DNA of 64,000 bases from sequence record PV654397.1. One strand, written 5' to 3'. Below are positions 53,413 through 56,535 of the stretch, piece by piece. Origin of the DNA: Escherichia phage WPEC5. Made by a program: the position numbers and the translations under genes. Numbering within the stretch: position 1 is the stretch's first letter; each line of letters starts with the position of its first letter. Below the pieces are notes generated by a model, which did not search any database, was not told where the DNA came from, and saw only the letters and a list, made by a program, of their open reading frames with translations.

Positions 53413-53657
53413 TACAATAATCCTCTCACATAAAACATTGATGAAAATAGATAATCTTCAGTACTAGAATTTAGTAGTTTATCAAAACTATATTTTTTAT
53501 GCTTATTTTTATACAAAGACATTCTATAGAATCTTTCTATATTTTCTAAGTATTCATTTCGTAATAACATCTGTGTTGTTACATTCACTATAATGTACCT
53601 TAAAAGAAAAAGGGACCAATATATGATCCCTTTTGTATTAGAAATTACCTTCAGCAA
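53412..53657 (-). CDS. hypothetical protein (81 aa)
   Basis: Track ORF. Confidence 0.45.
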   Translation of the reverse strand: MLKVISNTKGIIYWSLFLLRYIIVNVTTQMLLRNEYLENIERFYRMSLYKNKHKKYSFDKLLNSSTEDYLFSSMFYVRGLL

Positions 53658-54570
53658 CTTGCATTACTTTCAACCCAAGTAGCTTACGCCACATGAATAC
53701 AACTTGTGATCTATCATCATAAACCTTTTTAACATCGTAATGATCAACCACATTTTTCATGTACAGGTCGAATTTTACAACATCATCAGGACGTTTGTCA
53801 TCGATGCCTCGCATAAACAACGCATCATAAGGAACACCCCAATTCTTAAGCCACTGTTCGGTATCAGCACGACACCCTTCAGTACGCCCACTCATGACGA
53901 TAATCTTGCGTTTATGAAAAACTGCTTCAGCGATAACAGATAAAATAACTTCTTCGTCTGGTGTATCCTGGAGTACAGTACTTTCATCGAACGGGTTACG
54001 GCCCCATTTATGAGCAAGAGTACCGTCGATATCAACGATAATAGCAGCTTCTCGTGAATTACCATAGTAACCAATGTGCAATGCTTTACTATAATAGTAC
54101 GTATCTGCCATAGTGTCAATGATATTATCTTGTACTGAACGCTCACGCTGGAGGTTATATTTCTTACAAAGTTTTACGAACTCTTTAATCTTAAAGAATT
54201 CATGAACATCTGCACCACGGTCTTCATTAGGTACAAAATCATCATAGAAGTTCTTTTCTTTGTAATCATAACCATTATCTATAGCCCATACTTTCCATAG
54301 ATTACGGAAATGTTGTTTAAGGTTCGTATCGGATATGATGATGTTCCAACCATTCTCTGCTGCTGAATTTGCTGCACTGAACTGTAAATTAGTTACGTAC
54401 TGCTCATTAGCATCGTTGAATTTGTAAGCATCATGTGAGCCAGCCATAGATTCACGAATATCATCACGGTTGATGTTGATAGTCTTGGATTTGGCTTTTT
54501 TAATCTCTTGCACTGCCCATGTAGTTTTACCACACCCAGGCAATCCAACTGTTAGTGTGATAGTTGGCAT
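53638..54570 (-). CDS. pseT: polynucleotide 5'-kinase / 3'-phosphatase
   Basis: P-loop GLPGCGKTTWA; phosphatase DIDGTLA; C-terminal DDRSQVV...WQVAEGNF aligns with T4 Pnk. Confidence 0.85.
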   Translation of the reverse strand: MPTITLTVGLPGCGKTTWAVQEIKKAKSKTININRDDIRESMAGSHDAYKFNDANEQYVTNLQFSAANSAAENGWNIIISDTNLKQHFRNLWKVWAIDNGYDYKEKNFYDDFVPNEDRGADVHEFFKIKEFVKLCKKYNLQRERSVQDNIIDTMADTYYYSKALHIGYYGNSREAAIIVDIDGTLAHKWGRNPFDESTVLQDTPDEEVILSVIAEAVFHKRKIIVMSGRTEGCRADTEQWLKNWGVPYDALFMRGIDDKRPDDVVKFDLYMKNVVDHYDVKKVYDDRSQVVFMWRKLLGLKVMQVAEGNF

Positions 54571-54573
54571 CCT

Positions 54574-54903
54574 TTAATCCTCTAAAAATTTAACATGCTC
54601 TATATTATGATATGTGAGCCATTCCTGTGGTGTTCCCTTGCGTATTAAAACACCAATATACGCAATACCATTAATTAGACCATTACTATCAGTATTCACA
54701 TCAACTTTCACAATCTCGGAATCGTACCAGTGTTTGAATGTGTAATCCCAACATCTGACTTTCTTTCCAATAAGATTGCTCTTGTATTTGTCAATCATTT
54801 CATCGACGATAGTTTGTACTGAATTTTTAATTTCAGCTTCTACTGACTTTATATATAGTAAATTACTTTGTGCATTGTTTATCATTGTATTTCCCAATCC
54901 CAA
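54574..54903 (-). CDS. hypothetical protein (109 aa)
   Basis: Track ORF. Confidence 0.5.
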   Translation of the reverse strand: MGLGNTMINNAQSNLLYIKSVEAEIKNSVQTIVDEMIDKYKSNLIGKKVRCWDYTFKHWYDSEIVKVDVNTDSNGLINGIAYIGVLIRKGTPQEWLTYHNIEHVKFLED

Positions 54904-55099
54904 ATCGCTTGGAGATTTTCACAAGTACAGATTCATCACAACGAATACTAGCAGTATCATTGGATGAACTGTACTTTAATGGGGTCCACTGTAATTGAGA
55001 TTCTTCTAGGAACTTGATACATCTGAAATAATCTTTCAAGGAAAGAAATTTAACTACTGACATATCCTGAACAATACTATGCTGAACTTCAACTTTCAT
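54863..55099 (-). CDS. hypothetical protein (78 aa)
   Basis: Track ORF. Confidence 0.45.
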   Translation of the reverse strand: MKVEVQHSIVQDMSVVKFLSLKDYFRCIKFLEESQLQWTPLKYSSSNDTASIRCDESVLVKISKRFGIGKYNDKQCTK

Positions 55100-55108
55100 A
55101 TGAACTCC

Positions 55109-55366
55109 TTATAGTGGGTCGAATTTATTTTCACGTTTCGATGTATAGCGAGTTACATCATGTATTCTCGGCTTAACACCTTTTGGTTTCCTTTTCTTCT
55201 TGTATTCAGTACTACTACACCCGAAAGTATTCTCGATTCGTTTCTTACTAATCTTCACACCTTTCTTAGAGCGTTTGTGCTGTAATTCATCGATTTCTTC
55301 TTGTATTTTCCTGAATTCTGTCGGAGAAAGGGAACCGTCATTTTTATACTTAGGTTTAGCCATCAC
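55109..55366 (-). CDS. small basic protein (85 aa)
   Basis: Lys/Arg-rich throughout. Confidence 0.5.
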   Translation of the reverse strand: MMAKPKYKNDGSLSPTEFRKIQEEIDELQHKRSKKGVKISKKRIENTFGCSSTEYKKKRKPKGVKPRIHDVTRYTSKRENKFDPL

Positions 55367-55392
55367 TTCTCCTTGTGCTAGGCTAGATAGTA

Positions 55393-56535
55393 CTAAAAAT
55401 CCTTTAGTACAATTTTCATGTACTTAATAAGAGTCTCTTTGTAATCGACTTTCTTATTGTTGTACATTGCAAAGGCCAAGCCCTGACGATTCAGTTCATT
55501 AGTTAAACACTCCTGAACCTTCTTAGCGAATTCCTTTCGCTCCAAGTGCTTGTGTTCCTTGACGAAGCTTTCAACTTCATCTTGTAAAGCATTATAGCAC
55601 GAAAAGACTAGTTGTTCCATTCTTAATATCTTTTGGGTAGCATATTCGTCAGTACTGAACAACTGTTTTAAATCATCACTCGAACCATTTAATACAGCTT
55701 CATATAAATGGGAATCGATTATAATACTGTCTTTCGTTAAATGCAAAGAACAATACCAGTCGGTTTTGATTTTGCACATTGTACCATTATTTAGGATGCA
55801 CACAAAACCTTCAATGTCAAGCATTTTCTTAACTTCTTCAACACTTTCTTTGAATGTAGCACGAACAGGGAAAGTGTAATGAATATCTTTACCTGTCATG
55901 TTAGTACTGTACTGTGCAAGGCATGGAAACTTGTTACGTAATGCAGAACCACATAATAGTTCACCACTCTTGCGATGGCGAACGTTTAGTACAAATATTT
56001 GTTCAACCTGGTATGGTAATACAATACGGTACTCTGGACTTGTATACTCCAGATTAACAGTATAGCCCAAACGGTCTGCTTCGTCAATGTATTGATACAA
56101 ATTTTGGTTCTCATTGAGAAGACGAGTACTGTTAATCGCATGATCTGAATACAATGCAGTATGTGATTTACAACGAATTACACCATCATTATCACGGTAA
56201 GTACTGATTACTGAACCATCCAACTTAGGCATCACTACTGCAATGTCATCGAATGTGGTATCAGAAGGGAACATTGTAGCAGGATTTTCGTAAGCATTGA
56301 AGAACTTTTTCATAGTACGAGCAGCACAACGAATCATATCACCGTCTTCATCAATTTCCCACATAGAACCACGGGTTTCTAATGCATTGGGTTGCATGAA
56401 ATCGGTATATGATGCTAGACGATAACTGAATACACGATATGTTCCACCAGCAGGACTTTTATGATCCACATAAAAGAAAGCCTCACGAGTATTACATAAG
56501 TGCATTAAATCTTCATATATTTGTAAAAGGGTCAT
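55393..56535 (-). CDS. rnlA: RNA ligase 1
   Basis: GGTYRVFSY...ALETRG and lysine motif KLDGS align with T4 Rnl1; 380 aa. Confidence 0.85.
   Translation of the reverse strand: MTLLQIYEDLMHLCNTREAFFYVDHKSPAGGTYRVFSYRLASYTDFMQPNALETRGSMWEIDEDGDMIRCAARTMKKFFNAYENPATMFPSDTTFDDIAVVMPKLDGSVISTYRDNDGVIRCKSHTALYSDHAINSTRLLNENQNLYQYIDEADRLGYTVNLEYTSPEYRIVLPYQVEQIFVLNVRHRKSGELLCGSALRNKFPCLAQYSTNMTGKDIHYTFPVRATFKESVEEVKKMLDIEGFVCILNNGTMCKIKTDWYCSLHLTKDSIIIDSHLYEAVLNGSSDDLKQLFSTDEYATQKILRMEQLVFSCYNALQDEVESFVKEHKHLERKEFAKKVQECLTNELNRQGLAFAMYNNKKVDYKETLIKYMKIVLKDF

Follow-up and report, generated by a model that had tools for sequence, protein, structure and literature searches.

In the genome of Escherichia phage WPEC5 (sequence record PV654397.1), we analyzed a stretch of 64,000 nucleotides, hereafter called the window, in which three genes of putative tRNA-repair enzymes are located, all on the minus strand: namely, rnlA (55393..56535), encoding a T4-type RNA ligase 1 (Rnl1) of 380 amino acids with an adenylyltransferase domain and the Rnl1 C-terminal domain; pseT (53638..54570), encoding a bifunctional polynucleotide 5'-kinase/3'-phosphatase (Pnk) of 310 amino acids; and cca (3201..4316), encoding a class II tRNA nucleotidyltransferase (CCA-adding type) of 371 amino acids that is devoid of an HD domain. 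These positions, though not the shared strand, had been given in an earlier note, which was made from the sequence without database searches, and the listing of open reading frames (ORFs) agrees with them exactly. Also, the three family assignments made there are borne out by profile searches (Pfam, PHROG, and NCBIfam) and by matches to solved structures, and the catalytic residues named there are all present, i.e., K104 of Rnl1, the GLPGCGKT and DxDGT motifs of Pnk, and GGxxRD with D21-K-D23 of the CCA-adding enzyme. As judged from its sequence, the window derives from a jumbo coliphage genome of the Asteriusvirus type and represents another isolate of the PBECO4/121Q group, the Asteriusvirus relatives of which are jumbo myoviruses of ~350 kb. 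The rnlA-pseT region (53000..57500) is 99.7% identical to Ecwhy_1 and fEgEco12, 99.0% to Turkey3, and ~93% to PBECO4, SP27, and phAPEC6, and over the cca region, both Turkey3 and Ecwhy_1 show 98% identity; among the Asteriusvirus records, the identity to the window genes is 85-100% in DNA or protein, and proteins of RaK2 (Alcyoneusvirus) are 64-67% identical.

The product of rnlA matches the Pfam families PF09511 (RNA_lig_T4_1) and PF20819 (T4_Rnl1_C), scores 289.4 bits against TIGR02308 (equivalog cutoff, 242.25), and is aligned with the structure of T4 Rnl1 (2c5u) at E = 7.5e-57. Indeed, the Rnl1-specific helical domain at the C-terminus is found in residues 268-379 (PF20819, E = 2.6e-16); in T4, this domain confers tRNA specificity on Rnl1. 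To read the active sites, we aligned the window proteins to their counterparts in T6, for which the T4 numbering is used, and in RaK2. The motif I lysine was then found in K104-L-D-G, which is aligned to K99-E-D-G of T4, and R54, K75, F77, K99, D101, and G102 of T4 are kept as R55, K77, F79, K104, D106, and G107, as are E159, E227, G228, K240, and K242 (E163, E242, G243, K255, and K257 in the window protein). Mutagenesis in the Shuman laboratory has reportedly revealed R54, K75, F77, K99, G102, K119, E159, E227, G228, K240, and K242 as the essential residues of T4 Rnl1; by this list, for which a literature check found nothing usable, all but one (K119) of the 11 residues are identical in RnlA. 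We are thus confident in assigning this protein to the T4 Rnl1 family on the basis of its profile matches and active-site residues.

The protein encoded by pseT is composed of a P-loop domain (PF13671) and a HAD_PNKP domain (PF25109, E = 5.8e-43) and furthermore matches phrog_505 (E = 3.5e-94) and the structure of T4 Pnk (1ltq, E = 5.8e-38). In the kinase part, the P-loop GLPGCGKT (G9-LPGCG-K15-T16, where T16 corresponds to S16 in T4) is present together with D36, R39, and D81 (D35, R38, and D85 in T4), and the phosphatase part retains D180-I-D182-G-T184, R191, R229, D262, D285, and D286, for which the T4 counterparts of the arginines and of the last three aspartates are R176, R213, D254, and D277/D278. 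Compared with T4 Pnk, ~20 residues are inserted where the kinase core is joined to the linker. PseT can hence be placed with confidence, by homology, in the T4 Pnk family.

Between rnlA and pseT lie three small ORFs, as the earlier note had described; they have the same orientation and encode proteins of 85 (55109..55366, -), 78 (54863..55099, -), and ~103 amino acids (54574..54885, -). The first one is very basic, belongs to phrog_15306, and is annotated as hypothetical in relatives, and the other two belong to phrog_14730 and phrog_31355, respectively; function is unknown for all of these three PHROGs. As the start of the 103-residue ORF, we adopted the ATG annotated in Turkey3, while the mechanical ORF begins at 54903. 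In a Pfam scan, no family above the cutoff was hit with the 85-residue ORF and no match was found for the 78-residue ORF. Upstream of rnlA, there are three more ORFs on the minus strand, 57491..57790 (99 amino acids), 56797..57486 (229 amino acids), and 56532..56795 (87 amino acids), which belong to PHROGs 32132, 32531, and 28139, none with a known function. This set of genes is bounded by two terminator-like hairpins on the minus strand, each followed by a U-run. One of them (53608..53634) begins 3 nucleotides past the stop codon of pseT and folds with -14.4 kcal/mol (z = -4.4), and none of 200 shuffled sequences folded as well in the pattern scan combined with RNA folding; the other (57809..57828; -12.9 kcal/mol, z = -3.8) is at the upstream edge. 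Eight ORFs are thus placed between the two hairpins in the order of those of 99, 229, and 87 amino acids, rnlA, those of 85, 78, and 103 amino acids, and pseT, with spacing by gaps of 3-26 nucleotides or small overlaps, and rnlA and pseT probably belong to one transcription unit. Matches to a sigma-70-like promoter were no more frequent in the pattern scan than in shuffled sequence, and we claim no promoter here.

The arrangement of rnlA, small ORFs, and pseT is not limited to the window. In T6, rnlA is followed by an alc-like gene, four small genes, and pseT, and in RaK2, rnlA is followed by five small ORFs and pseT, all in one orientation in either phage; the linkage of rnlA with pseT is thus old and conserved. 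The 229-residue ORF (56797..57486) was considered as another repair partner such as an RlaP nucleotidyltransferase, but this candidate was dropped, given no match in Pfam and its absence upstream of rnlA in RaK2. Just four homologous clusters were found for this ORF, all unannotated, and its AlphaFold model was unusable with a predicted local distance difference test score (pLDDT) of 47. Repeats in 52000..59000 were limited to short, chance-like matches. In a BLASTP search for paralogues in the set of small ORFs near rnlA and pseT, 50242..50496 matched 53152..53412 weakly (E = 3e-4); this was the only such pair, and no family is claimed on it.

In PHROG and in many GenBank records, the family of rnlA is labelled as "RNA ligase and tail fiber protein attachment catalyst," and one might accordingly consider that the gene owes its retention chiefly to the other activity of T4 gp63, the non-enzymatic promotion of tail-fibre attachment, and that its adjacency to pseT is just historical. 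Nonetheless, with the identity to T6 Rnl1 at 36%, the active-site residues of the ligase other than the equivalent of K119 are kept, as they are in RaK2, which argues for selection on catalysis. The conserved linkage with pseT across very distant phages also speaks against the idea, and we know of no fibre-attachment role of RNA ligase in these phages. We consider it very doubtful that rnlA is maintained in this way.

The third gene, cca, is 51 kb away from rnlA and pseT and is surrounded by other genes; nothing was found that would join the three in an operon. In the earlier note, the three genes were taken together as a toolkit analogous to the heal-and-seal repair of T4; the analogy itself is reasonable and has already been proposed (PMC7247149, PMC7824862), but the link of cca to rnlA/pseT is unsupported at this distance. 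As a protein, Cca matches PF01743 and PF12627 (PolyA_pol head and RNA-binding domains), phrog_2244 "tRNA nucleotidyltransferase" (E = 2e-115), and solved structures of CCA-adding enzymes (E = 8e-22). Motif A is represented by GGYTRD starting at residue 7 and by D21-K-D23, and its G7, G8, R11, D12, and D23 are invariant among 26 homologs, as are the motifs RRD(91), D110-P-x-x-G114, and EDPLR(132). We are therefore confident that Cca belongs to the class II CCA-adding family, and it is predicted to add the complete CCA.

This enzyme is nonetheless shorter in its domain content than that of E. coli. The best matches of Cca in NCBIfam are models of the CCA type, all of which stay under their cutoffs with only the N-terminal half matching; indeed, the score against PRK10885 is 279 bits (89 bits for PcnB) and covers only positions 1-204 of the 409 in the model. 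Residues 1-205 are 58% identical to a bacterial homolog of 412 amino acids with an HD domain (assigned to the NCBIfam family PRK10885), while the remainder is unrelated in sequence. There is no match to PF01966 for an HD domain in Cca, nor any histidine beyond residue 171, and all phage homologs in the 26-sequence alignment have a deletion of the bacterial block that contains the HD motif (HHPEIDTGIH ... HDLGK). The phage Cca by itself would therefore act neither as a 2',3'-cyclic phosphodiesterase nor as a phosphatase. When the earlier note called the enzyme "full-length," this is right for the phage family (~370 amino acids), but the HD domain of the 412-residue, E. coli-type enzyme is not included. 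The HD-less form of ~370 amino acids is conserved in the jumbo phages Asteriusvirus, Alcyoneusvirus (RaK2), and GAP32 and in those of Erwinia, Salmonella, and Xanthomonas. As a side note, the record of 121Q (KM507819) labels cca as "phosphatase," and that of Ecwhy_1 seems to do so too, despite the lack of the HD phosphatase domain in the protein; the label is probably a carry-over from the annotation of the multifunctional E. coli enzyme.

What would then be the substrate of Cca? Neither tRNA nor other RNA genes were found in the window with ARAGORN and Rfam, and the repair genes are thus not adjacent to the phage tRNAs. Several tRNA genes are encoded in the relatives, and some of them have no CCA. 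In TH47, of which the whole genome was scanned, there are four tRNA genes (Thr-UGU, Asn-GUU, Arg-UCU, and Ser-GCU), and CCA is not encoded in three (Thr, Asn, and Arg). Likewise, CCA is absent from three of the six in Ecwhy_1 (both copies of Thr-UGU, and Asn) and from three of the seven in Turkey3 (both copies of Thr-UGU and one Ser-like gene), so that every copy of tRNA-Thr(UGU) in these three phages is without encoded CCA. The discriminator base in the CCA-less genes is followed by CAAA, except that tRNA-Arg of TH47 continues with TAAA. The tRNA-Ser(GCU) gene of TH47 was detected by ARAGORN with no confirmation by Rfam in that locus, but an identical gene is confirmed by Rfam in Ecwhy_1 and Turkey3.

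The tRNA region was the most variable part compared, with 53-68% coverage between relatives. It includes a tandem duplicate of tRNA-Thr(UGU) in Ecwhy_1 (locus 5843..5996) and Turkey3 (locus 4843..4996), an HNH homing endonuclease gene among the tRNA genes of Turkey3 (locus 6500..7024), and a group I intron (100 bits in Rfam) in TH47 (locus 12819..13132, -), ~100 nucleotides downstream of tRNA-Ser(GCU).

All tRNA genes of E. coli encode CCA, and the host Cca only repairs the ends (PMC5824355); accordingly, the phage tRNAs are the sole tRNA genes in an infected cell that need CCA from scratch. Most likely, the routine job of the phage enzyme would be to make the CCA end on phage tRNAs, e.g., tRNA-Thr(UGU), whose genes do not encode it. 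It might also rebuild the trimmed ends of any tRNA, given that the host enzyme supplies only a low-demand repair activity. The presence of cca would thus be explained by the building of CCA ends on phage tRNAs no less well than by a defence directed at 3' ends, and a role in repair is compatible with it. Cca may also counter a defence targeting 3' ends, but such a role is not indicated by the sequence.

The earlier note had gone further in taking the presence of cca to imply that the host or a defence system attacks tRNA 3' ends or anticodon loops; nothing in the sequence points to an attack on the 3' ends, and phage tRNA maturation is better grounded by the CCA-less genes (3/6, 3/7, and 3/4). 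In its full form, the idea is that the phage CCA-adding enzyme acts as a counter-defence, rebuilding tRNA 3' ends hit by a host immune nuclease in one pathway with Rnl1 and Pnk. CCA-adding enzymes are indeed among the RNA-repair functions of jumbo phages compiled by Iyer et al. (PMC7824862), and cca is near the genes of a Nudix hydrolase, a probable 2H phosphoesterase, and a PTH2-fold protein; the separate neighbourhood of cca at 51 kb from rnlA/pseT is, however, at odds with a single pathway, and the HD phosphohydrolase domain, from which the end-healing activities of E. coli Cca are derived, is missing. Systems acting on the 3'-CCA of tRNA are also known, namely pyrophosphorylation by toxSAS (PMC11559606) and extension of the MenT/AbiEii type (PMC11162799, PMC11541572), but these modifications (pyrophosphate and extra nucleotides) are not undone by CCA addition alone. 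Our literature searches turned up no E. coli defence removing CCA, and the need to mature the phage tRNAs suffices to explain cca. An enzyme dedicated to such counter-defence is hence considered improbable. In terms of tRNA loss, furthermore, it is known that P2-OLD prefers the host tRNA-Thr(UGU), that its damage is beyond the repair by T4-type ligases, and that phage Thr-tRNAs are resistant (PMC12445682). We may speculate that replacement tRNAs in combination with a CCA-adding enzyme would suit a P2-OLD-like threat.

In T4, RnlA and PseT constitute the pair that repairs tRNA-Lys and thereby counters the anticodon nuclease PrrC. Given the genes described above, we consider it likely that the phage carries a T4-type heal-and-seal pair (rnlA/pseT), a separate HD-less cca for phage tRNAs, and neighbouring genes for the maintenance of translation. 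When an RNA is cut by a metal-independent RNase, Pnk would remove the 2',3'-cyclic phosphate or 3'-phosphate and phosphorylate the 5'-OH, and Rnl1, self-adenylylated on K104, would then reseal the break, with its C-terminal domain directing the ligase to the anticodon loops of tRNA. By extrapolation from T4, the natural substrate would be host tRNA cut by anticodon nucleases of the PrrC or RloC type.

Alternatively, Rnl1 and Pnk might serve for general repair of RNA or nucleic-acid ends instead of anti-PrrC repair; that is, they would act on tRNA or mRNA cut by RloC, colicin-type RNases, or RNases of toxin-antitoxin systems, or Pnk would mainly remove 3'-phosphates at DNA ends. The pair is indeed very widespread, far beyond the hosts known to carry prr, yet the only in vivo role shown for the T4 pair is that against PrrC. 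While Iyer et al. argued for different ligases for different RNase effectors (PMC7824862), and a singly nicked tRNA-Thr is resealed in vitro by T4 Rnl1 and Rnl2 (PMC12445682), repair by ligases fails against certain tRNA nucleases, P2-OLD among them (PMC12445682). The Rnl1-specific C-terminal domain (PF20819), to which the tRNA specificity of T4 Rnl1 is ascribed, is furthermore conserved in the window protein. A general role in end repair is accordingly regarded as a tentative and rather unlikely alternative to the heal-and-seal of tRNA.

Several points nevertheless weigh against the T4-type heal-and-seal pair with a separate cca as we read it. First of all, a literature search found no experiment on this phage group, and the functional statements are all derived from homology. 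In Rnl1, K119 of T4 is aligned to H125 in both the window and RaK2, with the equivalent of the adjacent K117 kept as K123; in Pnk, R126 of T4 is aligned to Q141 with R142 adjacent, again in both the window and RaK2, in an uncertain alignment at the region of the insertion. Given these alignments of K119 with His and of R126 with Gln, full activity is likely but not guaranteed. Also, the promoter matches are at the chance level, and the transcription unit is hence defined only by the terminator-like hairpins. As to cca, the argument on tRNAs depends on relatives in which the tRNA region is variable, with the window holding no tRNA gene, and about half of the phage tRNA genes encode CCA in a host that has its own Cca, so that the phage enzyme is not strictly required for the maturation of tRNAs.

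The neighbourhood of cca is occupied by genes that would fit the published set for "keeping translation running" in this phage group, i.e., those of a PTH2-fold protein, a probable 2H phosphoesterase, a Nudix hydrolase, and a Macro-like protein. Directly downstream of cca are the genes for Nudix, glutaredoxin, and Macro-like proteins (1385..1861 and 2443..3094, -). Immediately next to cca is the Nudix hydrolase (2681..3094, -; PF00293, E = 9.6e-12; phrog_1185), in which the similarity to RNA pyrophosphohydrolase is weak, and the Macro-domain-like protein (1385..1861, -) has 158 amino acids and matches phrog_335 (E = 2.9e-46), with Macro of Pfam just under the cutoff (E = 5.7e-4). A 125-residue protein (667..1044, -) is a candidate peptidyl-tRNA hydrolase in that its AlphaFold model (pLDDT, 70) has the PTH2 fold; no match was found for it in Pfam or among PDB sequences, one homolog with 64% identity carries PF01981, and the Turkey3 annotation, which names it peptidyl-tRNA hydrolase, is the sole one to do so among the records examined.

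Upstream of cca, a protein of 110 amino acids (6452..6784, -) resembles ribosome hibernation factors with a Ribosomal_S30AE/hibernation-factor domain (Pfam, E = 1.6e-10), and a protein of 136 amino acids (7895..8305, -) is a probable stand-alone 2H phosphoesterase and thus a candidate 2',3'-cyclic phosphodiesterase. The latter scores 23.8 bits (E = 5.9e-5) against 2H-SAK of Pfam (PF22547), under the cutoff of 27; in its family of more than 400 clusters, nonetheless, 37 of the 44 sampled members match 2H-SAK (best E = 1e-8). Both histidines of its motifs HVSI (H57) and HITI (H127) are invariant among the 44 homologs, with T129 nearly so. A PDB sequence search gave no solved structure for this protein, and in 76 phage records, every row among those listed has it as "hypothetical protein" or unannotated. 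Its gene is 2-4 kb from cca in Turkey3, RaK2/K64-1, fENko-Kae01, and fHe-Yen9-04, the relatives for which both genes could be located. Of the two proteins, which are labelled hypothetical in most records, the one of 125 amino acids is probably a hydrolase of the PTH2 type, and the one of 136 amino acids is probably a 2H phosphoesterase.

One might further suppose that the island of 0.6-8.3 kb, composed of the PTH2-fold protein, the Macro-like protein, Nudix, the HD-less CCA-adding enzyme, the hibernation-factor-like protein, and the 2H phosphoesterase, is a dedicated pathway for unblocking and rebuilding tRNA 3' ends against pyrophosphorylation of the toxSAS/CapRel type or extension of the MenT/AbiEii type. 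In such a pathway, Nudix, the 2H protein, and the phosphatase of Pnk would strip the blocking group, and CCA addition would restore the end; if true, it would be a counter-defence distinct from the anticodon-loop repair by Rnl1/Pnk. We give this supposition very little credence.

Some paralogues were also noticed in the window. Immediately upstream of cca are two in tandem (4452..4895 and 4861..5274, -; BLASTP, E = 1e-7), which belong to phrog_20693 of unknown function. Elsewhere (20669..26711, -), two paralogues of ~900 amino acids (20669..23398 and 24015..26711) are ~30% identical, and an ORF of 195 amino acids between them is related to both; all three are hypothetical in relatives.

Most of the above has precedents in the databases and literature. 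The names of RNA ligase (1), polynucleotide kinase, and (CCA) tRNA nucleotidyltransferase are already in the records of relatives, and among 50,697 phage records, Rnl1, Pnk, and CCA-type enzymes are found in 1671, 2151, and 495, respectively. Anti-Prr repair has been suggested for phAPEC6 in the same genus (PMC7247149). Also, Iyer et al. (2021, Viruses 13:63; PMC7824862) described an RNA-repair and ribosome-rescue set of jumbo phages comprising Rnl1, PNK-HAD, the CCA-adding enzyme, PTH2, 2H phosphoesterase, Macro, and Nudix, in which proteins and accessions of Ecwhy_1 serve as the examples of group 2.2. Both the genes and their presumed role in tRNA repair are thus already annotated and published, and the finding is correct but ordinary; its value as a discovery is low, given that dozens of nearly identical phage genomes already carry annotations of these genes and that the set was described with a 99.7%-identical phage as an example. 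What we add is refinement, namely that the CCA-adding enzyme is HD-less and not linked with the rnlA-pseT pair, that the CCA-less tRNA genes of phages offer it an obvious substrate, and that two of its neighbours are probably of the PTH2 and 2H types. These refinements could guide knockout work in jumbo coliphages considered for therapy.

Compared with known systems, RnlA (gp63) and PseT (Pnk) of T4/T6 have both families, the catalytic motifs, and the Rnl1 C-terminal domain in common with their window counterparts, and T6 shares the gene order and orientation with small ORFs between rnlA and pseT. Nonetheless, RnlA and PseT of the window are only 36-38% identical to the T6 proteins, the intervening ORFs have no PHROG family or annotated name in common with the intervening genes of T6 when compared by labels only, and several features of T4 appear altered in the window: K119 is aligned with His, R126 of Pnk seems shifted by one, and Pnk has the insertion of ~20 residues. 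With E. coli Cca, which is multifunctional in CCA addition and repair (PRK10885), the phage enzyme shares the head and neck domains and the intact motifs A-D, whereas its C-terminal half is unrelated in sequence and is missing the HD motif block and histidines. The comparative review by Iyer et al. is silent on CCA-less tRNA genes of phages. The closest likeness is to the Asteriusvirus/Alcyoneusvirus jumbo phages (Ecwhy_1, Turkey3, PBECO4, 121Q, phAPEC6, and RaK2), which have the same genes and from which nothing substantial differs in the window.

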